Shown in pieces: positions 30,692 to 61,288 of a stretch of DNA of 64,000 nt. The notes below the pieces were generated by a model. The model was not told the DNA's origin. It saw only the letters and a list, made by a program, of their open reading frames with translations, and searched no databases. The DNA is from a virus. Taxonomy: Duplodnaviria > Caudoviricetes. Position numbers and translations under genes: made by a program. The DNA is taken from the IMG/VR virus record IMGVR_UViG_3300027772_001865, positions 1 to 64,000 of that record; one strand, given 5' to 3'. The number at the start of each line of letters is the position of its first letter. The stretch's first letter is position 1.

Positions 30692-30711
30692 ACCTAAAAC
30701 CAGCGTATACT
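30683..30711 (+). promoter_or_regulatory. sigma70-like promoter TTTACT-N17-TATACT driving the glycan island
   Basis: 4/6 and 5/6 matches to TTGACA/TATAAT with ideal 17-nt spacing. The -10 box ends 6 nt before the ATG at 30718, and there is no SD. Confidence 0.55.
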
Positions 30712-30717: not shown

Positions 30718-31023
30718 ATGGATACTGATGACTTGATTGCTCATGCACGAGCACGGTTTGATCACGTTGCCGCAAAACGTGTACTCAAAGAAAAATACGA
30801 AGCTCGTATGTTGTTTGCCTTGGCCGGAGGCATGTGGCAAGCAGGACCTAAACTGTTGACCGTATTAGCAACATGCCCAGATGAATCAGCAGTGCTATTG
30901 GATTTGTATGAAACTCCAGTACGAGTTGATGTCAGAGAGCTCGAATTGGCAGCACAACAACGTTGGCAAGAGCAAATGAATGGCTGGCTTGCCGAGCACG
31001 AAGAACTTAGAAAACAACGATGA
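30718..31023 (+). CDS. Hypothetical protein (101 aa), first gene of the island
   Basis: Promoter directly upstream, ATGA overlap with the next gene, plausible helical protein. Confidence 0.7.
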   Translation: MDTDDLIAHARARFDHVAAKRVLKEKYEARMLFALAGGMWQAGPKLLTVLATCPDESAVLLDLYETPVRVDVRELELAAQQRWQEQMNGWLAEHEELRKQR

Positions 31024-31850
31024 CCCAGGGTGTTCTGATATTTGCCTTCAACAATGAAGAAACAGACTACCTTGCTATGGCTGAATGGAGTGCTGGCAAT
31101 ATTCGTCGTCATTTGAACTTGCCTACAAGTGTGGTTACCAATACAGAATATACAGGCACAGCATTTGATCATGTGATACGGGCTGACGCTGAGTCAGGTG
31201 GCACACGATACTTTGAAGACTACAACAGCACTGTGACCTGGCACAATGCCGGGCGTGTTGACGCATACCGCTTGACACCCTACGATCAAACCATTGTGCT
31301 GGATGCAGACTATGTTGTAGCCAGTAACAATCTAAAACGTTTGTTAAATGCCAATCAAGACTTCCTGTGTCATAGGCTAGCATTTGACCTAGCAGGACAA
31401 ACTGACATGCGTGGCCTAAACACATTTGGTAACTATGACATGCCCATGTGGTGGGCCACAGTGATGATGTTTCGTAAGAGTAACACAGCACAATACATTT
31501 TTGATTCAATGCAAATGGTGCGCGACAACTGGCAGCACTACAGAGATCTTTACAATATTGATCGTGCCACATACCGCAACGATTTTGCACTGAGCATTGC
31601 CCTGGGCATTGTAAGCGGACACACAATGAAAGTGGATGAAATACCCTGGGCACTGGCCAGCGTCATGCCCAACACACAATTAATGAGATGGATTGACACA
31701 GATTCGTATATAATAACATATACAGACAGTGATCAAAAACTCAAGCACATGAGCTTTGAAGGCTTGGACTTTCACGCCATGGGCAAAAAACATCTAGGAG
31801 ACATCGTTGAAACCGATCGCCGAACAAGGCTACTTGATAGTAGCAATTAA
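31020..31850 (+). CDS. GT-A fold glycosyltransferase-like protein (GT8/mannosyltransferase-like)
   Basis: GVLIFAFN...DY...A...I.RH...P..VVT, LTPYDQTIVLDADY (DxD motif), WATVMMFRK, and RNDFALSIA. Confidence 0.65.
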   Translation: MTQGVLIFAFNNEETDYLAMAEWSAGNIRRHLNLPTSVVTNTEYTGTAFDHVIRADAESGGTRYFEDYNSTVTWHNAGRVDAYRLTPYDQTIVLDADYVVASNNLKRLLNANQDFLCHRLAFDLAGQTDMRGLNTFGNYDMPMWWATVMMFRKSNTAQYIFDSMQMVRDNWQHYRDLYNIDRATYRNDFALSIALGIVSGHTMKVDEIPWALASVMPNTQLMRWIDTDSYIITYTDSDQKLKHMSFEGLDFHAMGKKHLGDIVETDRRTRLLDSSN

Positions 31851-32595
31851 CACCGCCAGTACCAACTATGTAGGCTGTGCTGAAACACTGGCTAAAACAA
31901 TAAAGTATTGGCACCCTGATGCGCAAATTTGCTTACTAACCAATGCTACAGATGCCAGCAATCTGTCGCTGTTTGACTATGTGCGTGAGTTTCCGTTTCC
32001 TATCAACTTAGACAATCCCTGGGCCAATGACTGGCAAGTGTTTCGAGCAACACCGTTTCGTGAAACAATCAAGCTGGAAGCAGACATGATGATCACCAGT
32101 CCTATTGATCATTGGTGGACCATGTTGCGCAACCGTGATGTTGTTGTGTCAACTGGCTGCAGGGATTGGCGAGACCAACGTGCAGTGAGCAGACACTATA
32201 GAAAAGTATTTGATGCCAACTCATTACCGGATGTATACAATGCCATCACCTACTGGAGACTAAGCCAAACAGCCAAGGAGTTCTTTGATACTGTACGCAC
32301 TATCTTTGAAAACTGGGCAGACTATCGCAAACTCATAAAGTTTCCCGAAGATGTGCCCTCAACTGATCTGGTGTATGCCATGGCAGCCAACATCATTGGC
32401 TCAGAACTTTGTACTATGCCATTTGCTAGTTATCCGCAGATCATACATATGAAACGGCACCATGCAGGCAGCCAAACTGAAGCATGGTTAAACGAGTTTG
32501 TGCTTGAGTACAAAAACTACATGACTAGAATAAACACCATTGCGCAGTGGGGAGCCTTACATTACAGGGTCAAGGAGTGGACACATGACAGATGA
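31807..32595 (+). CDS. GT-A fold glycosyltransferase-like protein, paralog of the preceding gene
   Basis: QGYLIVAIN...Y...A..LA..I, ATPFRETIKLEADM (ExD variant), and VYNAITYWR. TTG start with AGGAG 6 nt upstream. Confidence 0.6.
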   Translation: MKPIAEQGYLIVAINTASTNYVGCAETLAKTIKYWHPDAQICLLTNATDASNLSLFDYVREFPFPINLDNPWANDWQVFRATPFRETIKLEADMMITSPIDHWWTMLRNRDVVVSTGCRDWRDQRAVSRHYRKVFDANSLPDVYNAITYWRLSQTAKEFFDTVRTIFENWADYRKLIKFPEDVPSTDLVYAMAANIIGSELCTMPFASYPQIIHMKRHHAGSQTEAWLNEFVLEYKNYMTRINTIAQWGALHYRVKEWTHDR

Positions 32596-32926
32596 AGAAT
32601 TTTGGCAAGCTCTAAGAGACATGCCCGAGCCCAAACCTGTGTTCTATCGACTATATTACAACGAACAAGGCGAGCCCTTATTCTATAGCATGGAAGATGT
32701 TCCAGGTACATACTTGACTATTGACGCAGATGCATTTACTCGTAGTGCAACCAATGTTGTGGTGCAGGATGGCAAACTGTTTGAAATCGTCAACACCACC
32801 ACTGTTAAATTATACCCTGGCGATACGGGTATACCTTGCCACCCCGATGATGTGTGCATAGTGGTACCCGAAACACAAGAACACCAAAGATGGAGCAAAC
32901 AAAGACATGGCCTTAAACCAAATTGA
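32585..32926 (+). CDS. Hypothetical protein (~113 aa)
   Basis: The track start is 32540, but the ATG at 32585 has AAGGAG 7 nt upstream. Sequence FYRLYYNEQGEPLFYSMEDVPG... Confidence 0.65.
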   Translation: MTDEEFWQALRDMPEPKPVFYRLYYNEQGEPLFYSMEDVPGTYLTIDADAFTRSATNVVVQDGKLFEIVNTTTVKLYPGDTGIPCHPDDVCIVVPETQEHQRWSKQRHGLKPN

Positions 32927-33839
32927 TGTAGCAGACCTAGACTGCATTTACTTGACTTATGATGAACCGCAGAAAGAAGAATTCTGGGTAAAGATACGCA
33001 ACATGGTACCCTGGGCCAAGCGTGTGGATGGAGTCAAAGGATCAGACGCCGCACACAAGGCTGCCGCTGCCGCTAGCGACACAGAGCGGTTCATATTGAT
33101 CGACGGCGACAACATGCCCGATCCAGAGTTCTTCAATCAAACCATAACATTTGCCACAGCAGATTATGAACAAGCTGTGTTCCGTTGGAGAGCACGTAAT
33201 CACATCAATGGACTCATGTACGGCAACGGCGGCCTGAGTTCCTGGACTAGAACGTTTGTGAACAACATGCGCACACACGAAGCCACAGACGGTCGCACAG
33301 AAACTGAAGTAGAGTTTTGTTTTGATCCGTTATACTGGCCCATGTATGACTGCTACTCTACAACATATCCCAATGGAGATGCGTTCCACGCCTGGCGGGC
33401 GGGCTTTCGTGAAGGTGTAAAGATGTGCCTGAACAAAGGCGCCAAACCCACAGTAGAAGCATTCAAAGAACAAGCACACCGGAAGAACCTAGAGAACTTG
33501 ACCATCTGGCACAACGTGGGCACAGATGTTGAGTACGGCGAATGGGCTGTAGCAGGTGCACGACAAGGCACCTACATGACCATGCTCACAAACTGGGATC
33601 ATCGTCAAGTACAATGGTTTGATGCTCTAGAAGAATTATGGGCCACAGTCAAAGACAGTCAGCCAAGACTGATCAGTAATCAACTTGGCGTTGATCTAGG
33701 TACGCAGTTGGATCTACCTATGGCCATACTAGAGCAAGAACAAAGCGCATTTTTTAAACGTCACTATCGTAGCAATTGGCACAACCAAGGTGCCATGGTC
33801 AGGGAAATTGATGTGATACGCCGTCAAGAAGGTTGGTAA
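32907..33839 (+). CDS. GT-A fold glycosyltransferase-like protein
   Basis: DCIYLTYDEP...VDGVKGSDAAHKAAA...RFILIDGDN (DxD), NHINGLMYGNGG, and AWRAGFREGVKM. Confidence 0.6.
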   Translation: MALNQIDVADLDCIYLTYDEPQKEEFWVKIRNMVPWAKRVDGVKGSDAAHKAAAAASDTERFILIDGDNMPDPEFFNQTITFATADYEQAVFRWRARNHINGLMYGNGGLSSWTRTFVNNMRTHEATDGRTETEVEFCFDPLYWPMYDCYSTTYPNGDAFHAWRAGFREGVKMCLNKGAKPTVEAFKEQAHRKNLENLTIWHNVGTDVEYGEWAVAGARQGTYMTMLTNWDHRQVQWFDALEELWATVKDSQPRLISNQLGVDLGTQLDLPMAILEQEQSAFFKRHYRSNWHNQGAMVREIDVIRRQEGW

Positions 33840-35224
33840 TGAGCAAAGGTGATCAAAGCCGATTTATGACATCAGCGGAGCAAATGAAGCAGGATCTTGG
33901 TCCTGCACTGTGCTTGGCAAAATGGAAACAGGTTAGTTTTCACTTGCCTACAGGACTGAACAATAGCTGTTATCACCCGCCCTTGCATCAGATCACCGCA
34001 GATGATCTATCTCGTCCTGGTGGCCTACACAATACTGCACATAAAAAACAACAACGTTTGATGATGTTGCAAGGCAAAAAGCCCACAGAGTGTCAGTATT
34101 GCTGGAACATGGAAAACCTGGACAAGCTGAGTGATCGGCATTATAGATCAGGAGAACCCTGGGCAGCCGTGGACCTTGAACGCATAAAGAACTCCTCGGG
34201 ACAGGAAGATGATGTTGTGCCTAGTTATGTGGAGGTGAATTTTAATCATGCTTGTAATCTAAAGTGTAGTTATTGTAGTCCACAATTTAGCTCAAGTTGG
34301 GGTGATGAAATAGAACGCCTAGGTGCTTATCCCACATCAAAACCACACAATGCACCCGAACACTTTGTAGGAAACCGCAAACCTATTCCTGCTAGAGAAA
34401 CTAATCCATATGTTGACGCATTCTGGGAATGGTGGCCTACTTTGTACCCACAGTTGGTACACTTTCGAATGACAGGCGGTGAGCCATTGATGGATCGAAA
34501 CACCTATAGAGTTTTTGATTATGTTCTAGAACACGACAACCCTCAACTGCATTTAAATGTAACTTCAAACTTTTCAGTAGAGGACGCATTGTTTGAAAAA
34601 TACATGGACTACGCAAAGAAATTATGCACACCACGCATTGAACACTTCATGCAGTATGTTAGTCTAGATTCTGGAGTTCCATTGCAAGCTGAGTATCTAA
34701 GGCATGGATTAGACTATGCACGAATGGCTCGCAATGTTGAAAGATTTTTGCATGAAATACCACATCGTAATAGCTTGACATTTATCATCACCATGAACAA
34801 TCTCACCGTGACTGGATTACCAGCTTTACTGGAATGGATACTAGAATTACGTAAAAAGCATTCAACTACATATCAACGTGTGTGGTTTGATACTCCTGTG
34901 CTACGCGAACCGGCTTGGCAGAGTTTACAACTTTTGCCCGAAAGCTATGCTGTACAACTAGAACGAGCAAGAGACTTCATGCTGGCCAACATGGTCACAG
35001 AGTCTGATCCTTTACACGGATTCAAAGACTATGAAGTACAACGACTAGAGCGAGACATTGCTTGGATGCGTGAAGGACAGCTAAAAGATAACACAGTGGC
35101 CAAGGCAGATTTTTACAGATTTTTTAACGAACACGATCAACGTCGTGGCACAGACTTTTTAATTGCTTTCCCGGTCATGAGATCCTGGTGGGCAGAATGT
35201 GAGTATCATGCTAGGAACACATAA
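33839..35224 (+). CDS. Radical SAM protein 1, N-terminal twitch type
   Basis: N-terminal CLAKW...SCYHP...CQYCW, CNLKCSYC (CxxxCxxC), and TGGEP. The ATG at 33839 is TAATG-coupled (the track uses TTG 33833). Confidence 0.9.
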   Translation: MSKGDQSRFMTSAEQMKQDLGPALCLAKWKQVSFHLPTGLNNSCYHPPLHQITADDLSRPGGLHNTAHKKQQRLMMLQGKKPTECQYCWNMENLDKLSDRHYRSGEPWAAVDLERIKNSSGQEDDVVPSYVEVNFNHACNLKCSYCSPQFSSSWGDEIERLGAYPTSKPHNAPEHFVGNRKPIPARETNPYVDAFWEWWPTLYPQLVHFRMTGGEPLMDRNTYRVFDYVLEHDNPQLHLNVTSNFSVEDALFEKYMDYAKKLCTPRIEHFMQYVSLDSGVPLQAEYLRHGLDYARMARNVERFLHEIPHRNSLTFIITMNNLTVTGLPALLEWILELRKKHSTTYQRVWFDTPVLREPAWQSLQLLPESYAVQLERARDFMLANMVTESDPLHGFKDYEVQRLERDIAWMREGQLKDNTVAKADFYRFFNEHDQRRGTDFLIAFPVMRSWWAECEYHARNT

Positions 35225-36332
35225 GATTGTTGTTGACGAATGGTCAGAAGTGTGGGACTTGCTCAAGCCCTATGCAGATGAATCGTTTTGGCAACTGCCT
35301 GATTTAAATCCTGAAAACATCTACATTGTTGGCCGGCTACTTTTAAAAGACAACTGGACAGCAATAACCACCTGGGCCACAGAACATCCTGGACGCATTG
35401 TGTTTTGCAATCCAGCAGAAGGCAGCGAAACAGTGTTGCTACAACTACGGCGGTTGCGCATTGCAGACTATGTGCGTGATGGTCGCATACTGTTAATGAC
35501 ATCCGGAGACCTGGAACCAGGGTGGAATCATTTCAGTACGGATTGTTACTTTTCAAACATTGTGGAATACCAGGAAAACAGAGCGGCGCAGATACAAGCG
35601 TTATGGGAGTACTCAGATCAACGACCCTATAATTTTTTGTTTTTAAATGGGCGTTTACGCCCGCATCGTAAATGTTTAATTGATGGTCTTCGTCAGCACA
35701 AACTGTTGAATCATGCACTGTGGTCTAATCTAGGTAGCACAGTAGAAATGGAATTTACATCCAAGCTCGAGCCAGACAAACAGGAGCCCATAAGATTACT
35801 GCCGCCCGAGTATGAAATAGAACGTGCTGTGACACAATTAACTACTATGAGTACCACGGGCTTTGTCAAGCATGAACTATTTGGCAACACCTGGGGAGAT
35901 GCTGTGGTTAATCCACGGTGTTATACCGACACCTGGTTTAGTCTAGTAACAGAAACCATATTTGATTATCCGCACTCATTTAGAACAGAAAAGATCTACA
36001 AACCTATTTTAATGGCACATCCATTTGTGGTTGCTGCCAATTATGGTTATCTTCGAGACTTACGCAATGCTGGCTTTCAAACATTTGACAGTATCATAGA
36101 TGAATCGTACGACCAAATTGATTGCCCGCATGCCAGGATCAAGCGTATAATAGAAACAGTACGTTATCTTGTGAAGGGTGACTCTGAATATTTCTGGGAG
36201 GTCAGCCGCGACATCTGTAAATACAATCAGCAACATCTTGTGGAGTACAACCAGCAACAACGTGCTCTGCTCCCACAACAGTTAGAGCAATTTTTAAATG
36301 AACGATCTAGAATTCCGTCAACAACATCTTGA
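35199..36332 (+). CDS. GT10-like (TEK motif) glycosyltransferase candidate A
   Basis: FLFLNGRLRPHR...FSLVTETI...RTEKIYKPILMAHPFVV...LRDLRNAGFQTFDSIIDESYD resembles the GT10 (F)EN...(Y)xTEK donor-binding motif. Confidence 0.5.
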   Translation: MSIMLGTHKIVVDEWSEVWDLLKPYADESFWQLPDLNPENIYIVGRLLLKDNWTAITTWATEHPGRIVFCNPAEGSETVLLQLRRLRIADYVRDGRILLMTSGDLEPGWNHFSTDCYFSNIVEYQENRAAQIQALWEYSDQRPYNFLFLNGRLRPHRKCLIDGLRQHKLLNHALWSNLGSTVEMEFTSKLEPDKQEPIRLLPPEYEIERAVTQLTTMSTTGFVKHELFGNTWGDAVVNPRCYTDTWFSLVTETIFDYPHSFRTEKIYKPILMAHPFVVAANYGYLRDLRNAGFQTFDSIIDESYDQIDCPHARIKRIIETVRYLVKGDSEYFWEVSRDICKYNQQHLVEYNQQQRALLPQQLEQFLNERSRIPSTTS

Positions 36333-37635
36333 TACCAAGTCAGCTAGCTTTTGTGCCGCCAAGTGGTACAATGCTACCATATGGCTGGGATCGGGACAAA
36401 CCACAAGTTGTCACCATCCTCCAGCACATCATGTGACTGAAAAAGAAGTAATCATTAATCCTGCTGCCTTGCACAATACTCGACAAAAACGTGATGATCG
36501 TGCAAAAATGCTAGCAGGCGAACGTCCAGCAGGCTGTGAGTACTGCTGGAAGATTGAAGACATGGGCCGCAACGCCATTAGCGACCGTGTGTACAAATCA
36601 CGAATATATCCTATAGAAGCATTAAATGAAGCATTTACCACACCTGTACATGAAGATGTCAACCTACGCACCTTGGAAATTGCTTTTGATCGCACTTGCC
36701 AGCTTGCTTGCAGTTATTGTAATCCTGCATTTTCAAGCACCTGGGTCAATGATATCAAGCGACATGGACCTTATATCAAGCTGGAGTCAGATGGTCGCAA
36801 CCACTTTACTCATGAGCATAATAGTGCTCAACTTTATAAATTCGGTGAGGATAATCCTTACGTCAACGCCTTCTTTGAATGGTGGGAAAAAGACCTCCAT
36901 AGAACCTTACAAGAACTAAGAATCACAGGCGGAGAGCCGCTAATGAGTGGTTACACCTGGAAGTTGATTGACTGGTTTAAACTGAATCAAGGCAAGTCAA
37001 GCACAAAACTAGCCATTAACTCAAATCTTAGTTTTGAAACTGAAAAACTGCAAGAGTTCATTGAAGCTATTCGGCCACTGCCGCATGTGGAACTGTACAC
37101 CAGTATGGAAGCCACGGGTGTATCAGCAGAGTATATACGTGATGGTCTGAACTATGCACAATGGCTCTCAAATGTCGACTTGTTGTTGCAGAGTAACACA
37201 GTAAAAGCAGTGCATGTGATGTGTACAATCAATGCATTATGCTTGCCAACACTGCCTGCACTGTTAGATCAATTGCTGGAAATAAAACGCACACACGGTC
37301 GTGACCGTGTGAACTTTACGTTAAATATCTTACGCTTTCCCAGTTTTCAATCTGCACTTGTGATGCCAGTTAAACTGCGGGACCAATTCCGTGTGACACT
37401 AGAAACTTGGCTTGCTGTCAATCAAACCAATCCCTTGTTGCACGAACACGAAATAAATCATACACAACGCTTGATTGATTATTTAGACATAGTTAAAACT
37501 CCGCATTCAGACACATTTGAAATGCCTAAGCTACACAATGATTTCAAACAGTTTTATTCGCAATACGACCAACGCAGAAACAAAAGGTTTGTCGATGTAT
37601 TTCCCAACTTAAAAGAATGGTTTAACTTATTATGA
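36298..37635 (+). CDS. Radical SAM protein 2, N-terminal twitch type
   Basis: FCAAKW...SCHHP...CEYCW, CQLACSYC, and TGGEP. Confidence 0.9.
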   Translation: MNDLEFRQQHLDTKSASFCAAKWYNATIWLGSGQTTSCHHPPAHHVTEKEVIINPAALHNTRQKRDDRAKMLAGERPAGCEYCWKIEDMGRNAISDRVYKSRIYPIEALNEAFTTPVHEDVNLRTLEIAFDRTCQLACSYCNPAFSSTWVNDIKRHGPYIKLESDGRNHFTHEHNSAQLYKFGEDNPYVNAFFEWWEKDLHRTLQELRITGGEPLMSGYTWKLIDWFKLNQGKSSTKLAINSNLSFETEKLQEFIEAIRPLPHVELYTSMEATGVSAEYIRDGLNYAQWLSNVDLLLQSNTVKAVHVMCTINALCLPTLPALLDQLLEIKRTHGRDRVNFTLNILRFPSFQSALVMPVKLRDQFRVTLETWLAVNQTNPLLHEHEINHTQRLIDYLDIVKTPHSDTFEMPKLHNDFKQFYSQYDQRRNKRFVDVFPNLKEWFNLL

Positions 37636-46216: not shown

Positions 46217-46217
46217 T

Positions 46218-46319
46218 ATGAACTGGCTCAAAAACTTATACAATAGAATTCGTTTAGAAATTCGATACCGCAAGAAGCTAAAAGAACTGCGCAAACGAGA
46301 TCCATTTATCTACAAATGA
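46218..46319 (+). CDS. 33-aa basic micro-protein MNWLKNLYNRIRLEIRYRKKLKELRKRDPFIYK
   Basis: Own translation. It fills the gap exactly, starts 1 nt after the upstream stop and overlaps the carbamoyltransferase start by ATGA. The C-terminal PFIY recalls small proteins found beside carbamoyltransferases. Confidence 0.7.
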   Translation: MNWLKNLYNRIRLEIRYRKKLKELRKRDPFIYK

Positions 46320-47791: not shown

Positions 47792-47792
47792 T

Positions 47793-52409: not shown

Positions 52410-52412
52410 GCT

Positions 52413-53438
52413 TTACAGGTATGTTTCTAGGCCGCCACGACGACGTAGATCTTGTGTACAGCAAGAGATGCCACCATCCCAGAAGTAGCTGTGGCGCAGT
52501 TCGCTGATGATGGGGTTAATTCTATGCTTTTTGCAATAGTCAAACACTTCTTTGTTGTATGAACTAAAGATAACGTTCTCTTCGTCTAGTGCCAAGCAGT
52601 TGACATCAAACACAGTTTCGGCAACAAAGCCGGTCCATTTGTTTAGATACTTGTCCACAAAGTCTGTAAACTCAGCAGTAGGAGTTTGCCCCTGTACGTA
52701 CCAAGCCCCTGGGCTTTGCTCGTACTTGAACTTGCCCACTTCCATGGCAGCCCAGATTGAGCTATCCCAGATCTTGCATACGTCCCAGCCCGGGAAGTCT
52801 TTGGCCAGATCCAAGTTAACATCGTGCTTGCTGGATAACAACACACCGGGCTTGAGAATAGCAAACACAGCATCGCCGTGACCGTCTGTGATAGCTTCGT
52901 GAATACGATAACCTTCGCCTAGTACATTGTCCACAATCCACTTGGTTTGATCAGGACGCAAAAAGTCTGAGTTGTCAAAAAACACATCACGACCCACACG
53001 CACAATACAACTGGCACTTGCACCGTTTAATATACAATCTTCGTCCCAGCGACTATTGTGTGGATTAACAACTTGATCACCAAAGTCGGCACAGATATCA
53101 TCCAGCTCTTCCATGTTGAGCACACGCAGTAGTTTGTCGCCTAATGTGATTTGCCAATCGCGTGGTGTCAGTGGCGGCAGCGGAGCACCTCCTCCTTCGG
53201 TCTGATGCCAGATAAACGAGTCTTTACCAGGCAAGTTAGGGCGACGTACTCGAGCACCGTACTTCTCAATTGTCTTGCTCAAGTTGTCAAGATCTTCTTC
53301 AGTTTCGGCAAGAATTTGTTGTAGTTGATTACGCACTTGAGCATTGTCAATGAAATCAAAGTAATCTGGTGAGTAGGCGCGACCCACAATGACCTCTTCA
53401 AGAGGTTGCCAGCTGGTGTAAGAGTTAATTTTGTTCAT
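52413..53438 (-). CDS. Amidinotransferase family protein (glycine/inosamine-phosphate amidinotransferase-like)
   Basis: NSYTSWQPLEEVIVGR, TPRD, RVGRDVF, GHGDAVF..LKPG, FDVN, and DGGISCCTQDLRR, which contains the catalytic Cys. Confidence 0.85.
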   Translation of the reverse strand: MNKINSYTSWQPLEEVIVGRAYSPDYFDFIDNAQVRNQLQQILAETEEDLDNLSKTIEKYGARVRRPNLPGKDSFIWHQTEGGGAPLPPLTPRDWQITLGDKLLRVLNMEELDDICADFGDQVVNPHNSRWDEDCILNGASASCIVRVGRDVFFDNSDFLRPDQTKWIVDNVLGEGYRIHEAITDGHGDAVFAILKPGVLLSSKHDVNLDLAKDFPGWDVCKIWDSSIWAAMEVGKFKYEQSPGAWYVQGQTPTAEFTDFVDKYLNKWTGFVAETVFDVNCLALDEENVIFSSYNKEVFDYCKKHRINPIISELRHSYFWDGGISCCTQDLRRRGGLETYL

Positions 53439-54579
53439 GTAAGTTCTTTAATAAAGTATTTAATCTGTCCAGTTTCGTGGATTGAAATAACTGCTGGTTG
53501 TGCAGTATATCATCACAACAGCGTAGGAACATGCCGTGTGGATCTTGTTGGATGAGTTCAAGAGTATGTTTTACTTTTAACCACCGTTTAGTGTTGTCAG
53601 TTTCTAAATCGTATGTGTTGTCCAATACACTATCAAATGTTCTGTAACCTAGATCACGTAGGCATTGCAAACTACCTGTGGGTGCAACTAACACAAATGG
53701 TTGTGCATTCTTTATGGGTTTGAATGTTTTTTCTGTCAGAAATGTGCCACCTGAACCATCAGCATCAAAGTGTGTTTCGATTACAACATTGAAGTATGCA
53801 TCTGTATAATGTTCAGGCACAGTGAGTGCATGGTTGTTGTGTTCATCCACTGTTAACGTATCGCATCGGTAGGGTCCGTTCTCTATGAATACATCTACAG
53901 CAACATTAGGCAGGCGTTCTATTGGATTGTCTGCAGGATTATCGCCTAAAGGTAGTTCAGTGTTGTAACTCCATAAACTCTGTGCCAACATATTACTTTG
54001 TAGCAGGTCTGCCATTACAACTGCTCGCCACCATTTGTGTGTTCTGCTTAGTGCAACAAATGTGTATGGTCTTGATCTAGTATGAAACTCAACAGGTGCT
54101 ACATACTGATTCCTGCGCCAAAACAACAATTCATGATCAGGAAAATACGCAAAGCCTGGAATTGATTTGGCCGCGGTGTTGCCTGAAACAAACCTATAGC
54201 AGTTGATAGACAAGTTATGTTGCGCACACAAGTAATCCAATCGTAGTTTGATGTTGTGCGGATTATCGCCTTCGTGATAGTAAAATATCACTGTGACCAG
54301 GCCTTGCTGAATTCTTTGCAGTAATGAGTCAGCAACAAGAGCAAAGTAATCAATAGCAAAATCAAAAAAACCCAAGCCAATTACATAATAGCCATTACCT
54401 TGGGTGATTAGATTGTATTGGTACCCATGATCGTCCATGTGCCCGAATAATTCTGCAGGAGTGGTGTGCGGCCAATGTTGTCCAAACTCTCTCCAGGCCT
54501 GTGTGTACGGTCTAGCTTGGTGTTGTGCTAGCGCAGGATACGGACGACCTTTAACAATTGAATCAGCTACGAAGTTCAT
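53425..54579 (-). CDS. GT10-like (TEK motif) glycosyltransferase candidate C
   Basis: FVALSRTHKWWR...FNVVIETHF...FLTEKTFKPIKNAQPFVL...LRDLGYRTFDSVLDNTYD. Confidence 0.5.
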   Translation of the reverse strand: MNFVADSIVKGRPYPALAQHQARPYTQAWREFGQHWPHTTPAELFGHMDDHGYQYNLITQGNGYYVIGLGFFDFAIDYFALVADSLLQRIQQGLVTVIFYYHEGDNPHNIKLRLDYLCAQHNLSINCYRFVSGNTAAKSIPGFAYFPDHELLFWRRNQYVAPVEFHTRSRPYTFVALSRTHKWWRAVVMADLLQSNMLAQSLWSYNTELPLGDNPADNPIERLPNVAVDVFIENGPYRCDTLTVDEHNNHALTVPEHYTDAYFNVVIETHFDADGSGGTFLTEKTFKPIKNAQPFVLVAPTGSLQCLRDLGYRTFDSVLDNTYDLETDNTKRWLKVKHTLELIQQDPHGMFLRCCDDILHNQQLFQSTKLDRLNTLLKNLHEQN

Positions 54580-55684
54580 TCAGCATGTTAATCAGTTCTG
54601 GCCACAGGATGTTTTCAAGACCATTGCCATAAAAGTGTTCAAAGTTGTGTTCTACAATTGGCAAGCAAGCGCGATGTATTTGTTGACGTTCTGCTACACT
54701 AAGATTATCTAGATCTTTAAGTAGTTTAGTAACCTTTTCAACACGCTTGATGTCATCCGTTTCTTCATCATAGCTTTCGTCAAATACATCACCAAAGGTT
54801 CGGAATCCATAATTACGCATGTACTCCAAACTGTGTGCAGGAGCTACCAACACAAACGGCATTTCTAATGCAATTGCTTTGAATGTTTTTTCGGTAATGT
54901 GCAGTCGTTTGCCAAAGTACACAGTCTCTGTAGGCACATACACCAAACTGTCTTGTGCTTCTGTGTAGTTGCCTAACCAGCACGATGTCATAATTTGTGT
55001 CTCTTCTCCAGCAAACAATCTTGGCAACTCTGCTGTCAAGAACACTTGCTCTATGTCAGGATATATGTTATTATACTTGAGTGCTATTTGCGAAATGTCC
55101 ACATGCTCATAAGGACATATTCTAGGAGCCGAAATATAATTGTTGTCTAATTCATGTTTGAATACATTATACAAAAACAAAACTCTATGATCGCGTTTGC
55201 CCGCAACAATACGATTTGGGCTCATGAACGTATGAGTAGGCGATCTATCAGCGGCCCTGGGAATCAGAAAAGTTTTGTCGTAGCCGCGAAACCAATCTTT
55301 GCATGCCCATCCGTGATAAAAGTAGTAATGAGGCTTCCAACCATATATATTATTAAGTTCGTCAACGTATTCTCCCCTTTCACTAACAATCACATGTCCA
55401 TTGACACCTCTGCTCTCTGCGTTAGGCGGTTTGCTCCAATATTGAAGATCTTCAGTCCTAAGTTTAACATCGTCAAACAGCGATTTATGAAGATCCAGGT
55501 GTATGGGTTCTTGATCATGCAAAAATACAAAATCAATTTCTTGAATATCATCTCTACCGTAGTTGAACAATGCATCCGGGTCACTGCGTCCTGGCGGATC
55601 ACAAAAAAATGTTCTGGTGCCAGGGATGTGTTGATTAATCCAGGGCCAAAAGGTATTATTATAAATTTCGTCTATTCTAATCAT
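54563..55684 (-). CDS. GT10-like (TEK motif) glycosyltransferase candidate D
   Basis: FMSPNRIVAGKRDHR...YVPTETVY...HITEKTFKAIALEMPFVL...MRNYGFRTFGDVFDESYD. Confidence 0.5.
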   Translation of the reverse strand: MIRIDEIYNNTFWPWINQHIPGTRTFFCDPPGRSDPDALFNYGRDDIQEIDFVFLHDQEPIHLDLHKSLFDDVKLRTEDLQYWSKPPNAESRGVNGHVIVSERGEYVDELNNIYGWKPHYYFYHGWACKDWFRGYDKTFLIPRAADRSPTHTFMSPNRIVAGKRDHRVLFLYNVFKHELDNNYISAPRICPYEHVDISQIALKYNNIYPDIEQVFLTAELPRLFAGEETQIMTSCWLGNYTEAQDSLVYVPTETVYFGKRLHITEKTFKAIALEMPFVLVAPAHSLEYMRNYGFRTFGDVFDESYDEETDDIKRVEKVTKLLKDLDNLSVAERQQIHRACLPIVEHNFEHFYGNGLENILWPELINMLNELRS

Positions 55685-58600
55685 GTTTGATATTTTTTAT
55701 TCAGGTAAGAAGCCGGGATTGTTTGCTCATGAGTGCGAGGCTGATAGTATTGAGCATGCACAACAATTGAGTCGTACAAGGTTCTTTTGGTTTGTAAATT
55801 ACTTATCTGACTACACAGGCTTTGATTTTCTTTGGGAGCCTGTACCGTGGCAAGCACAACAACGACACGCATGGTTAGACCAGTATCAATTTGATTCGGG
55901 TGTGTATCTTGTTCCTAAAAAAGGATATGCAGAAACAAATTATCATGCAGAGCCTCGAGTACATAGATTGCCTGATATTGATTATTGGCACATACCCAAA
56001 TGGATTGATCCTGCCAGTATAGATTTTAGATGGGCGCCCGATCCCACTGATCCTCCTTACATATATGAGTTTCCTGTAGAATGGGATTGGGATAGAGTTG
56101 GTGGCCCGGAATATAGAATCCCAGGAGCAACTGATCGCAAGTATATAGACACATTTGTTACTCGCACACAGTCAGACAGAGACATGTGGAAAGTGTACGA
56201 CAATGTATCCAGCACTGATACTGTATTCAATTGGCATCCAAATCCGTTTGATCCGCCAATGATATATGTGTTTGGCAATCAGCATTGGCCAGCAGAAATA
56301 CGAGCCAGTGTAGAATATCATGTACCAGGTGCCACTGTAAAAAAATACATGGACGATATACGCACAACACGATTGTCAGACAAGAACAAGTTTACGTGTT
56401 TGTATCCTTGTGAGTTTGACTGGTCCTGGGAACCAAATCCAGGAGATCCGCCCTACATCTATGTTTTTGGAAATCAGTGGTGGCCTGCAGAAAAGATGGC
56501 CACAGTTGAATATCATGTGCCGGATGCAATAGAGCGTAAGTTCATGGATCAGCCTGCGACCTTACTAAGCAACAAAAACAATTGGTCGGTGCCCGATAAT
56601 GTTGATCCATTAAGTATTGATTATTCATGGGTACCTGATCCTGGAGATCCACCTTATACCTATGTGTTTGGTAACCAGCACTGGCCTGGAGAAATAATGC
56701 CTACTGTGGAATATCATGTTCCGGGCGCAACTGAATGCAAATACATAGATTATATTCGGATAACACTTACAGAATGCATGGATAACTGGGAAATACTGGA
56801 AGAAATTGCACATGATGAATGGGATTGGAGTTGGATACCAAATCCTTTAGATCCTCCTTACATATATGTGTTTGGCAACCAATGGAACCCACCAGAATTT
56901 AAAGCCAGTGTCAAGTATGTTGTCCCGGGCGCCTCAGAAGTCAAGTACATGGATCGTCGAACACGTAGACTTCCGACTCCAAAATTGTTCAGACATAATC
57001 TAGCTGTTAGCAAGTTTGATTATTCCTGGGAACCAAATCCGTTTGATCCTCCCATGATGTATGTGTTTGGTAATCAGTGGAACTCAGCTGTACTAGAACC
57101 CACAGTGGTGTACAATGCAGGAGGCAACGAAATCAAATATGTAGATGATATCATTGCCACAGTAGCACAAGATGTCAGCGCCTGGGAGTTGTTGGATGAC
57201 ATTGAATCATTTGATTACTCATGGAGACCCAATCCTACAGATCCTCCTTACATATATGTGTTTGGTAATCAATGGCTTACCCCCGAACAGCGTCCTGCAC
57301 TAAGATACTGTATACCAGACGCAACTGATATCAAGTACATGGATCATCCGCGAGCACAACGTCGTGGTGATCACACACGCTTTGTTCAGCACTATCCGGC
57401 ATCGTTTAACTGGTCCTGGGAACCTGAACCTGGCAGCCCACCTTATAACTATGTGTTTGGTAATCAGTATTATTCTGCAGAAGTCATGCCCACGATAGAA
57501 TATCGCATGAGTGGCGCAACAGAACGCAAGTACATGGATATTCCTGCACAATTATTACCGCATCACAGTAATCATTGGCACACACTTGTGGACTGTGAAT
57601 GGGACTATACATGGCGCCCAGAACCAGGATCGCCGCCTTACATCTATGTGTTTGGTAATCAGTGGTGGTCAGCAGAAAAGATGCCTACATTAGAGTACCA
57701 TATGGTCGGTGCCACTGAACGAAAGTACATGGAAGGCCCATTGGCTACACTACCAATAGACATGTCTAATTGGAGTATTCCAAAACATATTGATTTGACT
57801 GACATGGATTTTTCATGGTGTCCTGATCCTGGCGAACCGCCTTACATCTATCAGTTTGCAACACAACACCAAAAGACTGGTGGCCCACAGTATCGCATGC
57901 CAGGCGCTACAGAGTTCAAGTATGTGGACATGATGCGAGCTGAAGTTAAGAAAGAAGCCGCCCCTATATTTGAAATAGATCACTTGGATGGTGCCGCAGG
58001 GCAAATTCCTGATGTAGTTAAGCGAGTGCGTTACTTTGACAACTATCGTGATACGCTAATACGCTTGGCCAAGAGTCTAGTAGGTGAATATGAACATGTA
58101 TGGGTGTGTAGCAGTATATGTGATTACACTGACTTTGACTTTTCATGGCATCCAGAAACATGGCAATCAACAATGTTGCATGTGTTTCCATCAGACAAAG
58201 AAAAGTTTGGAGACACATTCTACATGCATGTGCCTACATTTGCTGAACGTGCAGAAAAGAAAGCCTTGTTGGAATGGTATAGTGTAAACTATGTGCCACG
58301 CCGGAGTGTGCCACGTAGACCCATGCCAGTGATCCTACACACAGCAGATTCGCATGTAGATGCAGTTAAAAACACAACATGGGCAGGACCACTTGCTACA
58401 TTTACCACAACAGATTATGTTCCTGGCAACATGATTACTGTTCCGCTCTGGCGTAAAGAAACCAAAACTATTGTTCCATTAAGTGCAGGTGCATCAAGTG
58501 TTATTGTACCAAGAGTAGCAGTAGGCGACGTTCGTACACAGTTATATGATTATGCTTACATAGACAAAACACGTCGTATGTTAAAAGATCATCCCCTGGA

Positions 58601-59294
58601 CATTGTGTTTATTTCGAATGGCGAACCCTATGCTGAGTTTAACTATGAACACTTGAAGTGGGCTGTGCAAATGGAAGGGTTAGACTGCAATCACATTCAT
58701 CATTCAAAGGGTGTGAATGGTCGTGTGGCAGCATATCAAGCAGCCGCTAGATTAAGCACAACACCTTGGTTCTTTGCTGTGTTTGCCAAGCTAGAAGTTG
58801 ATCATAGATTTGATTGGTACTGGCAACCTGATCGTATGCAACAACCCAAGCATTACATCTTCCACGCACACAATCCTGTGAATGGTCTAGTGTATGGACA
58901 CCAGGCCATGATTGCATATAACAAGAAGATGACATTAGAAAACACAGGAGAAGGTCTGGACTTTACCATGGATCAACCACACGAAGTTGTGCCTATCATA
59001 AGTGGCACAGCCAACTACACTGAATCACCTTGGATGGCCTGGCGTACAGCATTCCGCGAAGTACTTAAACTCAAGCACAGCCTGCCAGATGTAGAAAACG
59101 AATACAGACTCAACATGTGGCTCAGCGATGCCGGTGAAGTTAAAAATGCAGAGTGGAGTCGCTACGGAGCAGAGGATGCTGTAGAGTACTACGACGAAGT
59201 AGGTGGGGATTTTGCGGCTCTCAAGAAGAGCTACGAATGGGATTGGCTTGCGACGTATGCGTTTATGAAACGCAGTCTAACACCTGATCGCTGA
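55683..59294 (+). CDS. 1203-aa repeat protein: GT-like N-terminal fragment, ten ~66-aa W/P/Y-rich repeats, and a C-terminal GT-A-like domain lacking DxD
   Basis: Repeats FDWSWEPNPGDPPYIYVFGNQW...VEYHVPGATERKYMD. The C-terminal DIVFISNGEP...KGVNGRVAAYQAAA...NPVNGLVYG...AWRTAFRE aligns by eye with the 32907 protein. Confidence 0.8.
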   Translation: MFDIFYSGKKPGLFAHECEADSIEHAQQLSRTRFFWFVNYLSDYTGFDFLWEPVPWQAQQRHAWLDQYQFDSGVYLVPKKGYAETNYHAEPRVHRLPDIDYWHIPKWIDPASIDFRWAPDPTDPPYIYEFPVEWDWDRVGGPEYRIPGATDRKYIDTFVTRTQSDRDMWKVYDNVSSTDTVFNWHPNPFDPPMIYVFGNQHWPAEIRASVEYHVPGATVKKYMDDIRTTRLSDKNKFTCLYPCEFDWSWEPNPGDPPYIYVFGNQWWPAEKMATVEYHVPDAIERKFMDQPATLLSNKNNWSVPDNVDPLSIDYSWVPDPGDPPYTYVFGNQHWPGEIMPTVEYHVPGATECKYIDYIRITLTECMDNWEILEEIAHDEWDWSWIPNPLDPPYIYVFGNQWNPPEFKASVKYVVPGASEVKYMDRRTRRLPTPKLFRHNLAVSKFDYSWEPNPFDPPMMYVFGNQWNSAVLEPTVVYNAGGNEIKYVDDIIATVAQDVSAWELLDDIESFDYSWRPNPTDPPYIYVFGNQWLTPEQRPALRYCIPDATDIKYMDHPRAQRRGDHTRFVQHYPASFNWSWEPEPGSPPYNYVFGNQYYSAEVMPTIEYRMSGATERKYMDIPAQLLPHHSNHWHTLVDCEWDYTWRPEPGSPPYIYVFGNQWWSAEKMPTLEYHMVGATERKYMEGPLATLPIDMSNWSIPKHIDLTDMDFSWCPDPGEPPYIYQFATQHQKTGGPQYRMPGATEFKYVDMMRAEVKKEAAPIFEIDHLDGAAGQIPDVVKRVRYFDNYRDTLIRLAKSLVGEYEHVWVCSSICDYTDFDFSWHPETWQSTMLHVFPSDKEKFGDTFYMHVPTFAERAEKKALLEWYSVNYVPRRSVPRRPMPVILHTADSHVDAVKNTTWAGPLATFTTTDYVPGNMITVPLWRKETKTIVPLSAGASSVIVPRVAVGDVRTQLYDYAYIDKTRRMLKDHPLDIVFISNGEPYAEFNYEHLKWAVQMEGLDCNHIHHSKGVNGRVAAYQAAARLSTTPWFFAVFAKLEVDHRFDWYWQPDRMQQPKHYIFHAHNPVNGLVYGHQAMIAYNKKMTLENTGEGLDFTMDQPHEVVPIISGTANYTESPWMAWRTAFREVLKLKHSLPDVENEYRLNMWLSDAGEVKNAEWSRYGAEDAVEYYDEVGGDFAALKKSYEWDWLATYAFMKRSLTPDR
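56020..57930 (+). repeat. Ten tandem degenerate repeats, period about 195-201 nt
   Basis: TATGTGTTTGG(C/T)AA(T/C)CA recurs near 56265, 56460, 56661, 56865, 57060, 57255, 57450 and 57645, with two more diverged end units. Confidence 0.9.
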
Positions 59295-60372
59295 TGTATT
59301 CAACTTCGAGGTCTGTTAATTCAGGATAGATAGGCAAGCTGAGTACACGCCGAGCAAGACTAGAACTTGCTGCCAACATATCTGGACCTGGGTATGCACG
59401 ATACAATGGCATTTCGTGCAAGGGATTTACATAATGCACTCGTGTTTCTATTTTGCGTAAAGCAAGATTTGCTCTCAAGGTATCGCGGCCATCAACATCT
59501 ATAACAAACTTATGCACAGCATGATTGTGTGCATTAGAGTCGTTGATCAAACAACGTATGTCTGCATGTTTGAAACGCTCGCACCAATGATTGGCTATCT
59601 TTTGTCTACGTGCTTGCCACTGATCAATGTGTTTTGCTTTGACCAGCATGTGCGCACAGTCTAGTTCACTCATGCGGCTGTTGGTACCAGGATTACGATG
59701 CGTAGGCTTACCATTGTCTCTCCAAGCTCTTGCATATTCTGCTAGATCCAAATTGTCCGTGACCACAGCACCACCGTTGCCATAACAAGCAAGGTTCTTC
59801 ATGGGATCAAAGCTAATTGCGCCACCACCTCGCCCGGTTCTTTGACCATCTGCTGCCAGCCAATGTTGTGCGGCATCCTCAATTATAACAGTATCGTGTC
59901 GTAGCCATTCATTCCATGCACGAAGATTACCGTGATGAGTCATTGACGCACCATACAAGCCAACTAGCACTACAGCTTGATAACTCAAGTCATGTGGAAT
60001 TTTATTAACATCTATTAGGCCATGTATGTCTGTGTCAATGATGTGTATATCCCAGCCTGCCCGTATAAATGCATTGGCAGTGGCCACATAGGTCATTGAA
60101 GGAATTAATGCAGTAGGAGGATGTGGCACAGGAGATTCCATGGCCCAGTAACTGGCTAGAATCTCAAGTGCGTGGGTACCTGAGTGACAAGTTACTGCAT
60201 AGCGCACACGATTTTTTTTAGCAAGCCAAGATTCAAACTCAACAGTGTTGTTACCGTTCATGAGTTGGCCACTTCGAAGTACTTCGTCAGTAGCGTCTAA
60301 AATCTCTGTGCGGAGATTGTTATACTGCTTTCGGAGACCAGTAAACGGAATTGTTAAGCCAGTTGAAGTAAT
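59263..60372 (-). CDS. DegT/DnrJ/EryC1/StrS PLP-dependent sugar aminotransferase; true start uncertain
   Basis: AVTCHSGTHAL, YVATANAF, IIEDAAQH, SFDPMKNL (PLP Lys), GNGGAV, and GTNSRMSE. The frame is open upstream of the track ATG (60261) and encodes the family's N-terminal IPF..LRKQY segment up to a stop at 60388-60390. Confidence 0.88.
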   Translation of the reverse strand: MTSTGLTIPFTGLRKQYNNLRTEILDATDEVLRSGQLMNGNNTVEFESWLAKKNRVRYAVTCHSGTHALEILASYWAMESPVPHPPTALIPSMTYVATANAFIRAGWDIHIIDTDIHGLIDVNKIPHDLSYQAVVLVGLYGASMTHHGNLRAWNEWLRHDTVIIEDAAQHWLAADGQRTGRGGGAISFDPMKNLACYGNGGAVVTDNLDLAEYARAWRDNGKPTHRNPGTNSRMSELDCAHMLVKAKHIDQWQARRQKIANHWCERFKHADIRCLINDSNAHNHAVHKFVIDVDGRDTLRANLALRKIETRVHYVNPLHEMPLYRAYPGPDMLAASSSLARRVLSLPIYPELTDLEVEYISDQVLDCVS

Positions 60373-61288
60373 TTTGAAATCCCTCTTCTACATCCACTTT
60401 GGGATCATAACCTAGAATTGTTCTGGCACGGTCAATGTTTAATGCACCACGTGACGGAAAGTCTGCGTCTTTGTCTCGGCACTCAATAGTACCCTTGCCA
60501 ACAATTTTAACAATCATTTCTGCGGCTTCTAACAAGCTCACACTATGTGATTTAGTAATGTTATAGGTGCTGTTACGACTCATGATACGAGTAGCAGCCG
60601 CCACAATGCCATCTGCGGCATCATCCACATAGGTAAAGTCTAGCGTCTCCCCTGCCCCATTAACTCGGAGAACGCCTCCTCGCATGGCTCCGAGCATAAA
60701 TTTTGCCACCACTCGGTCTTCCACATCCAAGGGGCCGTATACAGCACTAGGCCTAATAACAGCGTAATCAAAAGCGCCGCGGCGATGGTAGTCTTTGACA
60801 ATGTCTTCTCCAGTTAATTTCATAATGCCATATTGGCCAATGGGTTTACAGTCGTAGTCTTCTTCTACTTGATCTTCAAAGTCACCATATACCATTGAAC
60901 TTGAAATGTACACAACACGTTCCACACCGTGCTTTTTGGCACTCTCGCAAACGTTGATCAAGCCCTCCATCATCACACGACTACCCCAGGCAGGGTTGGC
61001 ATTGACAACTTTCTGTCGGGGAAAACTTGCCATGTGGATGATAACTTCAGGTTTGTGTTTGGCCACTAGCCAATCAAAGTTGTCAGCATCGGTAATATCA
61101 ACGTGATAGATATTTTTGCCTGATATCTTCTTTAGCCGTTCCGCCATCAAGTAGTCAAGTTCTGCTTGTGGAATGATTCCGTAGTTGGTACGTGTGTCTG
61201 TTATGATCACTTCGTGTTCTAGAGCTTCTAATCGTTGTACCACGTTGTGGCCAATGAGCCCTAGGCCGCCTGTTACTAATATTTTCAT
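60320..61288 (-). CDS. NAD-dependent NDP-sugar epimerase/dehydratase (extended SDR)
   Basis: MKILVTGGLGLIG (GxxGxxG), ISSSMVYG, YGIMK (YxxxK), and LDFTYVDD. The ATG at 61288 overlaps the upstream stop (the track start is 61312). Confidence 0.92.
   Translation of the reverse strand: MKILVTGGLGLIGHNVVQRLEALEHEVIITDTRTNYGIIPQAELDYLMAERLKKISGKNIYHVDITDADNFDWLVAKHKPEVIIHMASFPRQKVVNANPAWGSRVMMEGLINVCESAKKHGVERVVYISSSMVYGDFEDQVEEDYDCKPIGQYGIMKLTGEDIVKDYHRRGAFDYAVIRPSAVYGPLDVEDRVVAKFMLGAMRGGVLRVNGAGETLDFTYVDDAADGIVAAATRIMSRNSTYNITKSHSVSLLEAAEMIVKIVGKGTIECRDKDADFPSRGALNIDRARTILGYDPKVDVEEGFQNYFNWLNNSVYWSPKAV

Follow-up and report, generated by a model that had tools for sequence, protein, structure and literature searches.

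A conserved gene island beside the tail-fibre genes of an uncultured freshwater jumbo myovirus probably builds and tailors a glycan

Host recognition clusters (HRCs) of pelagi- and cyanomyophages lie next to fibre genes, are rich in glycosyltransferases (GTs), are known from comparative genomics and have been read as modifiers of the host O-chain (Zaragoza-Solas et al. 2020, PMC7029224), and clusters of polysaccharide and carbamoyltransferase genes in jumbo cyanophages were predicted to decorate the capsule or to make a secondary metabolite (Iyer et al. 2021, PMC7824862). Glycosylation of the capsid and tail tube has been described for mycobacteriophages (Freeman et al. 2023, as cited in PMC12619734, a moraphage paper on a different lineage), and a marine T4-like genome was found to carry 12 radical S-adenosylmethionine (radical SAM) genes (PMC5332604). 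Here we describe a gene island at 30718-61614 of the window, that is, the first 64 kb of the 81,426-bp IMG/VR viral contig IMGVR_UViG_3300027772_001865, which derives from an uncultured freshwater jumbo myovirus and is estimated to be 23% complete.

Like the HRCs, the island is a large locus in the structural region by the tail-fibre genes of a T4-like aquatic myophage, with many glycosyltransferases and with lipopolysaccharide-type sugar genes such as rfaE; radical SAM proteins are also listed among marine pelagimyophage genes, their location not being stated (PMC7029224). HRCs, however, are hypervariable and non-syntenic, whereas the present island has a fixed core of ~60-86% identity over many contigs, and its radical SAM array and amidinotransferase and carbamoyltransferase module are not described in HRCs. 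The clusters of Iyer et al. likewise bring together paralogous GTs, sugar kinases, nucleotidyltransferases and carbamoyltransferases in a phage, but with a halogenase, 2-oxoglutarate-iron dioxygenases and methylases where this island has radical SAM enzymes, an amidinotransferase-fold enzyme and fucosyltransferase (FucT)-like proteins of the GT-B fold. In virion glycosylation, as represented by A64R of the chlorovirus PBCV-1 and the mycobacteriophages, soluble virus transferases act on structural proteins in the cytoplasm without a lipid carrier, and A64R is the top structural match of the island protein g05; those systems, however, employ few transferases and ordinary sugars with no known radical SAM, carbamoyl or amidino tailoring, whereas the island has a putative acceptor only. 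The conserved core, the nine-fold array of radical SAM enzymes with an N-terminal twitch module (N-twitch), the expansion of FucT-like GT-B proteins and the amidinotransferase-fold enzyme distinguish the island from described ones, and no characterised phage pathway with this enzyme set was found described in the literature, as the original prediction, made from the DNA letters, had supposed.

The enzyme inventory of that prediction and its general reading, a locus that builds and tailors a glycan, were supported by hidden Markov model (HMM) searches, predicted folds and synteny, and we regard the reading as likely. The fullest explanation that we propose, a self-contained cytoplasmic pathway for an unusual edited oligosaccharide that serves as a virion-glycosylation system, was assigned a probability of roughly 0.45. 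As listed below, 26 open reading frames (ORFs) are packed in 30718-61614, most overlapping by 4-50 nt, in good agreement with the expected run of about 25 contiguous coupled genes. The predicted start at 30718 stood, while the end had to be moved from 61288 to 61614, and a 33-aa micro-gene missing from the ORF list was added.

30718-31023, plus strand: g01, conserved 101-aa protein with no assigned function
31020-31850, plus strand: g02, candidate GT8-like glycosyltransferase with an LDAD motif; homolog of RsoM2USA ORF353
31807-32595, plus strand: g03, paralog of g02, candidate glycosyltransferase with an LEAD motif, start codon uncertain; homolog of RsoM2USA ORF352
32540-32926, plus strand: g04, conserved 128-aa protein with no assigned function
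32907-33839, plus strand: g05, GT-A-type domain (residues 5-157, DxD D66/D68) plus a helical C-terminal domain, from the AlphaFold2 (AF2) model and Foldseek
33833-35224, plus strand: g06, N-twitch radical SAM, core (NF033640, 292.7 bits)
35199-36332, plus strand: g07, TEK-family GT-B protein, FucT-like by predicted structure
36298-37635, plus strand: g08, N-twitch radical SAM, core (NF033640); 50% identity to RsoM2USA ORF202
37632-39338, plus strand: g09, N-twitch radical SAM with an extra N-terminal extension of ~165 aa (NF033640, 407.6 bits, residues 168-566)
39335-40552, plus strand: g10, N-twitch radical SAM, core (NF033640)
40542-41480, plus strand: g11, TEK-family GT-B paralog, by BLAST and alignment
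41477-42724, plus strand: g12, N-twitch radical SAM, variable (NF033640); 46% identity to g10
42721-45159, plus strand: g13, two fused N-twitch radical SAM units (NF033640), the second half core and the first half variable
45110-46216, plus strand: g14, conserved 368-aa protein with no detectable family
46218-46319, plus strand: 33-aa micro-gene overlapping the g15 start (ATGA)
46316-47791, plus strand: g15, NodU/CmcH-type carbamoyltransferase by Pfam; 45% identity to RsoM2USA ORF199
47793-49073, plus strand: g16, N-twitch radical SAM, variable (NF033640)
49058-50341, minus strand: g17, N-twitch radical SAM, variable (NF033640)
50338-51411, minus strand: g18, radical SAM of another type with an N-terminal SPASM-like module, variable
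51393-52409, minus strand: g19, radical SAM with a C-terminal Cys-rich module, variable; full-length in only 5 of the loci compared
52413-53438, minus strand: g20, amidinotransferase-fold enzyme by phmmer against PDB, median 86% identity
53425-54579, minus strand: g21, TEK-family GT-B paralog, by BLAST and alignment
54563-55684, minus strand: g22, TEK-family GT-B paralog, by BLAST and alignment
55683-59294, plus strand: g23, 1203-aa repeat protein with a g05-like C-terminal domain (966-1167), by BLAST and hhalign
59263-60390, minus strand: g24, DegT/PseC-like sugar aminotransferase (PF01041); first ATG at 60261, conserved N-terminus further upstream
60320-61312, minus strand: g25, extended short-chain dehydrogenase/reductase (SDR), similar to nucleoside diphosphate (NDP)-sugar epimerases/4,6-dehydratases (PF01370)
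61285-61614, minus strand: g26, conserved 109-aa protein with no assigned function, first gene of the leftward operon

All-against-all BLAST sorted the unannotated proteins into three sets, namely the four-member TEK family (g07, g11, g21 and g22), the pair g02/g03, and g05 together with the C-terminus of g23. The AF2 model of g07 (predicted local distance difference test, pLDDT, 88) displayed a GT-B fold, and all of its top 50 structural matches were GT-B glycosyltransferases. The best one was the alpha-1,3-fucosyltransferase of H. pylori (2nzx; Z 12.9, root-mean-square deviation 4.0 over 276 residues), tied with other GT-B families, and the T4 beta- and alpha-glucosyltransferases were among the GT-B matches as well (Z 12.1 and 11.1). 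In an alignment of 26 sequences including homologs from related contigs, E264 and K265 in the C-terminal domain were at least 90% conserved. The likeness to the H. pylori enzyme, a member of GT10, lies in the fold, and the near-invariant E-K pair of the TEK motif may correspond to the Glu/Lys of the fucosyltransferase. On the other hand, no Pfam family, GT10 included, was matched at E ≤ 0.01 by any of the four paralogs, no PDB match was obtained for the family by sequence or profile, and the Z score is shared with many GT-B families. The label GT10-like, given to these four proteins at the outset, is therefore fair as a description of the fold, whereas membership in GT10 fails at the level of sequence profiles.

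The AF2 model of g05 (pLDDT 91.6) revealed a GT-A-type nucleotide-diphospho-sugar transferase domain. Its top Foldseek match was PBCV-1 A64R (E 4.9e-4, probability 1.00), the VIA Z was 9.1 over residues 5-155, and the DxD residues D66 and D68 were at least 90% conserved in 44 sequences. The g05 family comprised 1168 cluster representatives, and the ESM Atlas offered nothing beyond automatic 'GT2-like' names for g05; the g05 profile retrieved nothing significant from PDB sequences. Among the three proteins that had been proposed as GT-A-like, g05 was thus corroborated by both fold and DxD, while g02 and g03 offered a D/E-A-D motif and a non-significant match to glycogenin-2 (E=2). Homologs of this pair carried no Pfam annotation, and a profile search for them recovered only close phage orthologs with no informative names. 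No relationship of g02/g03 to g05 was detected (hhalign probability 9.9%). Meanwhile, g23 carries, upstream of its C-terminal domain, ~8 W/P/Y-rich units (FDxSWxPNP...YVFGNQW), which are repeats at the protein level only, as Tandem Repeats Finder detected no DNA-level repeat in the gene. Its C-terminal domain was shown to be homologous to g05 (hhalign probability 99.1%) with F-A-K in place of D-G-D, so that of the forecast GT-repeat protein the transferase-like domain was recovered and the DxD motif was not.

Eleven radical SAM domains, the number initially counted, are distributed over ten genes, and CxxxCxxC was intact in all of them. Nine of the eleven exceeded the curated cut-off (170 bits) of the NCBIfam model NF033640, N_Twi_rSAM, with scores of 202-408 bits, and g18 and g19 fell below it; the N-terminal Fe-S module is thus a catalogued architecture. 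Four N-terminal Cys residues, those of the auxiliary cluster, were invariant in all nine N-twitch paralogs, followed by CxxxCxxC and GGE as in other NF033640 members. What sets the island apart within this family is that nine copies, two of them fused, stand together in a single phage locus, interleaved with glycosyltransferases. The best solved match of the N-terminal module was the twitch domain of BtrN (E 2.8e-6), in keeping with the likeness that had been suspected, and the radical SAM cores matched BlsE, viperin and 8vpo, a radical SAM protein without a name, and more weakly the peptide maturase SkfB. To judge by these conserved residues, the domains look competent.

As to the substrates of these enzymes, more than 7,800 protein clusters matched the radical SAM protein g10, a homolog search with g10 returned only close phage orthologs with no informative names, and no paper characterising NF033640 was found in the literature. 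None of the island radical SAM proteins reached the cut-off of any peptide-maturase model. Among sampled Bacteroidota genomes N_Twi_rSAM was rare, 4 of 401 lying above the cut-off, and three of the four bacterial neighbourhoods contained carbohydrate enzymes (GT2, GT4, GT11-like, polysaccharide deacetylase, SGNH and carbamoyltransferase), the fourth being a natural-product-like cluster with five PhyH proteins, a WelO5-type halogenase and a methyltransferase. Since these neighbourhoods are mostly of the carbohydrate type, sugars are favoured over peptides as substrates.

The predicted sugar-supply and group-transfer enzymes were identified by HMM matches. The SDR g25 matched PF01370 (E 5e-44), and the DegT protein g24 matched PF01041 (E 2.4e-58) from profile position 22, its conserved N-terminus being encoded upstream of the first ATG (60261-60390). 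The carbamoyltransferase g15 matched PF16861 (E 1.4e-47) and PF02543 (E 1.6e-34), with Carbam_trans_N (120.3 bits) and Carbam_trans_C (161.9 bits) both above the gathering score. A phmmer search of PDB with g20 retrieved StrB1 (1bwd, E 1.7e-13) and AGAT (E 7.5e-13), and also HsvA and SxtG, which bears out the postulated amidinotransferase at the level of fold homology, and the catalytic Cys and His residues align (GGISCC, GHGD). The motif CILN[GQ]ASASC (52998-53030, residues ~135-147), which contains the position of the catalytic Asp, is near-invariant in the clade, with only I/V/L and G/Q varying. No other island gene is as conserved as g20, whose median identity is 86%; selection on it is strong, and its chemistry may be altered. 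In addition, genes for a split ADP-heptose pathway lie 10 kb downstream of the island (contig 72773-74993), namely an HldD-like epimerase, an RfaE-domain-I kinase and a cytidylyltransferase-like adenylyltransferase.

The 33-aa micro-gene in front of g15 has 19 of its 33 positions invariant in 16 aligned relatives, the C-terminal half being near-invariant and ending RKRDPFIYK, and a similar unannotated ORF occurs near the carbamoyltransferase in RsoM2USA (L123:14219-14341). The micro-peptide may resemble the small SxtK-type ORFs (SxtK/DUF5989) beside the saxitoxin carbamoyltransferase. SxtJ and SxtK are proteins without known function (PMC2885083).

The predicted co-conservation of the island genes in related jumbo phages was also confirmed. 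Two IMG/VR scans for related loci returned 34 and more than 150 loci, and a tBLASTn matrix combined with gene maps revealed the same gene order in all 12 relatives inspected: fibre, Thr-rich protein, g01-g10, (g11), the second half of g13, g14, g15, ..., g20-g26. In every one of them the island follows the tail-fibre genes. Synteny of the core extends to more than 30 IMG/VR contigs of about 320-364 kb. The fixed core consists of g01-g10, the second half of g13, g14-g15 and g20-g26, and the variable part, gained or lost between relatives, of g12, the first half of g13 and g16-g19. Five of the relatives are 92-100% complete (320-364 kb), with terminal repeats in two, and the clade that carries the island is the ~350-kb Rak2/Atu_ph07-type jumbo lineage; the baseplate wedge protein at 8759-12256 shows ~34% identity to the wedge of Atu_ph07, Phosso, GAP32 and CBB. 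A megablast search against cultured phages gave no match to the window. At the protein level, RsoM2USA, a Ralstonia phage in culture, carries homologs of g02, g03, g05, g06 and g08. Its fibre locus reads wedge, giant fibre, SDR, fibre, g02, g03, g05, radical SAM, g05-like, and away from this locus the g08-like radical SAM gene ORF202 lies near the carbamoyltransferase gene ORF199. Its giant fibre, ORF361, was identified by mass spectrometry as a virion protein of >288 kDa (PMC8504454).

From the gene content, folds, conservation, soluble character and transcription signals of the island we infer the following steps, their order and the acceptor. The SDR g25 and the DegT enzyme g24 would supply an NDP-4-keto/amino-deoxy sugar, and the ADP-heptose genes could provide a second donor here and in the phages most closely related. 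The sugars would then be linked, on an acceptor that is soluble or peripheral, by as many as eight soluble transferases, namely g05, g02 and g03 if these are GT8-like, the TEK proteins g07, g11, g21 and g22, and possibly g23, which might act as a non-catalytic scaffold. In the tailoring stage, the nine N-twitch and two other radical SAM domains would abstract hydrogens from sugar C-H bonds, leading to oxidation, epimerisation, deoxygenation or C-C chemistry, while g15, with its 33-aa partner, would O-carbamoylate and g20 would modify an amino or guanidino group. The fixed core would thereby be combined with a variable radical SAM cassette, and the likeliest acceptor would be a phage structural protein of the adjoining fibre module. 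That the acceptor is a virion protein is our leading, if tentative, guess. A bolder version, in which a fibre or virion oligosaccharide is rewritten by the N-twitch radical SAM enzymes and the swappable cassette (g12, the first half of g13, g16-g19) diversifies the chemistry of the virion surface, appears doubtful.

Several searches bear on the acceptor. No convincing 19-residue hydrophobic or transmembrane segment was present in any of the 26 island proteins, and HMM searches of these proteins revealed no Wzx, Wzy, flippase, polymerase, initiating phosphoglycosyl transferase or exporter family; the island therefore does not encode a self-sufficient lipid-carrier pathway. In the five relatives of 92-100% completeness, a ThyA-type hydroxymethylase (PF00303) was absent, the positive controls having worked, and TET/JBP (PF12851) gave no match in a search that lacked a working positive control; classical O-glycosylation of DNA is thus unlikely. 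Within the fibre module the only Thr-rich protein was that at 29679-30647, which has a weak homolog inside RsoM2USA ORF355 and whose role as the acceptor would be speculative.

The transcription signals and the genes in front of the island are as follows.

27923-29665, plus strand: tail fibre gene (context), with PHROG virion/tail-fibre matches, N-terminal fibre repeats and an endosialidase-chaperone-like C-terminal end
29679-30647, plus strand: Thr-rich fibre-like protein (21.7% Thr), ~73% identity in relatives, last gene before the island
30665-30691, plus strand: terminator, GC hairpin plus T-run, between the fibre genes and the island
30706-30711, plus strand: -10-like hexamer TATACT, 6 nt before the g01 ATG, with hexamer and spacing kept in relatives
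61620-61628, minus strand: extended -10-like element TGCTATACT, 5 nt before the g26 ATG, TGnTAnAnT in relatives

The first ATGs of the rightward (30718) and leftward (61614) operons are each preceded at 5-6 nt by a TAnAnT hexamer, at a spacing kept in relatives, and the g13 start (42721) follows the same pattern, with TATAAT 5 nt upstream of its ATG. From such an arrangement, leaderless transcripts arising at sigma-70-type promoters are predicted. The structural genes, in turn, carry the T4-late-like motif YATAAATA, and all five matches in the window, at 8316, 8723, 27125 and 27890 on the plus strand and at 62309 on the minus strand before thyX, occupy short spacers immediately before gene starts; their count is that of chance, their placement is not. 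The tail fibre gene is preceded by TATAAATA at 27890, and the motif is probably a late promoter of the phage. Of the 22 upstream variants listed, most retained the hairpin and T-run of the terminator, and in several the stem had changed in a compensatory way.

Several findings weigh against the proposed virion-glycosylation pathway. The start of the DegT gene g24 is disrupted, the ancestral ATG being followed by TAG here, versus TAC in a 95%-identical relative; an upstream ATG is likewise missing from several relatives that share its KIT[TS][TS]G N-terminus. It is possible that g24 uses an ATT start or that the gene is crippled. The amidinotransferase-fold enzyme g20 lacks the catalytic Asp, Asn or Ser being found there in every relative examined, so that its Cys-His-Asp triad is incomplete. 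The fold matches of g05 are middling (Z ~9) and of a kind common to nucleotidyltransferases, which leaves its transferase activity putative, the g02/g03 profile gave no significant match to PDB sequences, and g14 had no relatives of known function by profile against PDB or in the ESM Atlas. As regards the virion as target, the linkage to fibre genes proposed as evidence was confirmed and is kept as far as RsoM2USA. However, no Ser/Thr-rich linker runs, on which the argument had also leaned, were found at two thresholds in any baseplate or fibre protein, the Thr-rich protein at 29679-30647 being the only one of such composition. Moreover, the conserved terminator splits the island from the fibre operon, and the island starts with a sigma-70-like -10 element rather than YATAAATA; the adjacency to the fibre genes is thus one of linkage, not of co-transcription. 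These separate signals weaken the argument from adjacency and leave early expression possible. Finally, soluble peripheral GT-B enzymes can also act on host lipid-linked lipopolysaccharide (LPS) intermediates, and ADP-heptose genes lie nearby.

The last point leads to the main rival, remodelling of the host envelope, in which the enzymes would edit intermediates of the LPS core, O-antigen or capsule at the inner membrane face during infection and so prevent competing phages from adsorbing. This accords with the published readings of the fibre-adjacent, GT-rich HRCs (PMC7029224) and of the jumbo-cyanophage polysaccharide clusters (PMC7824862), with the ADP-heptose kinase, adenylyltransferase and epimerase genes downstream, with sigma-70-like promoters compatible with early expression, and with the polysaccharide-type neighbourhoods of bacterial N_Twi_rSAM genes. 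Nevertheless, we consider it unlikely, as neither a membrane protein nor an initiating phosphoglycosyl transferase, flippase, polymerase or ligase is encoded in the island, and its core is strongly conserved over a clade with presumably differing hosts, whereas an O-antigen mimic is expected to vary. The ADP-heptose genes, of which the epimerase alone was searched, have a close homolog in just two of the five complete relatives, and a late surface change would bring little gain to a lytic jumbo phage unless the latent period is long. A diffusible metabolite, resembling an aminoglycoside, a nucleoside or mycofactocin, with the 33-aa peptide perhaps as a precursor modified by radical SAM enzymes and then glycosylated, appears improbable. 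It was for jumbo-cyanophage carbamoyltransferase clusters that Iyer et al. proposed a secondary metabolite (PMC7824862), one bacterial N_Twi_rSAM neighbourhood is natural-product-like, and the micro-gene with its near-invariant C-terminal half lies in a locus rich in radical SAM genes. The aminoglycoside and Nod-factor logic once invoked for the island does hold as sequence kinship, of the twitch to BtrN, g20 to StrB1, g15 to NodU and TobZ, and g24 to DegT, but only as an analogy: the twitch is N-terminal here rather than C-terminal, g20 lacks the catalytic Asp, and the context is the structural region of a lytic phage. Furthermore, no cyclitol scaffold enzyme (2-deoxy-scyllo-inosose (2-DOI) or inositol-phosphate synthase), resistance or export gene was found among the island ORFs with Pfam, NCBIfam and PHROG, nor was any recognition element (RRE) or leader peptidase detected in the island. 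Eight transferase-like genes would also be many for a small molecule, and the micro-gene is translationally coupled to the carbamoyltransferase.

Hypermodification of DNA, by which a tailored glycan on a modified base of the phage genome would evade restriction as in T4, is the least probable of these alternatives and seems very improbable to us. Beside T4, phage systems of DNA hypermodification are reportedly treated by Pyle et al. 2024. The T4 glucosyltransferases among the fold matches, which are tied with many others, the position of ThyX as the next gene after the island, and sigma-70-like promoters that could suit early genes are in line with it, and DNA glycans made by multiple GTs are known, as cited in PMC12619734. 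However, the five nearly complete relatives contain no ThyA-family dCMP/dUMP hydroxymethylase and yielded no TET/JBP match in the uncontrolled search mentioned above, ThyX is of an ordinary family of thymidylate synthases and has the YATAAATA motif of the structural genes, and the island showed no domain for DNA binding or base flipping.

If a virion glycan is indeed rewritten by radical SAM enzymes, it would be the first protein glycan edited in this way and would give NF033640 its first function. Either way, the island offers a route to the chemistry of N_Twi_rSAM, a catalogued but uncharacterised family, and points to carbohydrate rather than peptide substrates. Should the acceptor be a virion protein, virion glycosylation by phages would extend from mycobacteriophages to Gram-negative jumbo phages with a richer chemistry; should it be the host envelope, the island would represent a superinfection-exclusion device of unusual complexity. 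Phages of this clade abound in fresh water, although none of the island enzymes has been studied, and the reduced version in the cultured RsoM2USA makes the question directly testable. Near-identical DNA was present in freshwater metagenomes from more than 10 studies, with a summed contig word depth of ~200 in one run, and short contigs matching the island exactly occurred in three RNA libraries, which is compatible with transcription, carry-over of DNA being possible.

Some further observations concern related contigs and the fibre genes. The only hits of a single-protein genome scan were two contigs of a 'Haliscomenobacter sp.' metagenome-assembled genome (MAG), NZ_JBBAKG010000001/3 (183 + 148 kb), which harbour 12 N_Twi_rSAM genes and a g09 ortholog of 69-74% identity. 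In all likelihood these contigs belong to phages of this clade and were binned into the MAG, and they are weak at best as a hint to the host. In the Bacteroidota genome G085, an 842-aa protein sorted by the type IX secretion system (T9SS) and containing Peptidase_S74 (endosialidase-chaperone) lies beside two N_Twi_rSAM genes and five PhyH genes. The phage fibre at 27923-29665 appears by eye, with no HMM match, to end in a similar Peptidase_S74-like domain. Directly after the baseplate wedge gene, 12256-27120 on the plus strand encodes a single ORF of 4954 aa, which matches RsoM2USA ORF361 patchily in three short segments (20-29% identity). On the other side of the island, contig 64683-71383 encodes a MoxR-type AAA ATPase with a DUF2201 von Willebrand factor A (VWA)/metallopeptidase partner, a TctC/Bug-family binding protein, an Asp/Asn beta-hydroxylase-domain protein and a metallophosphatase, beyond which follow PsiE, AhpC and a class II aldolase.

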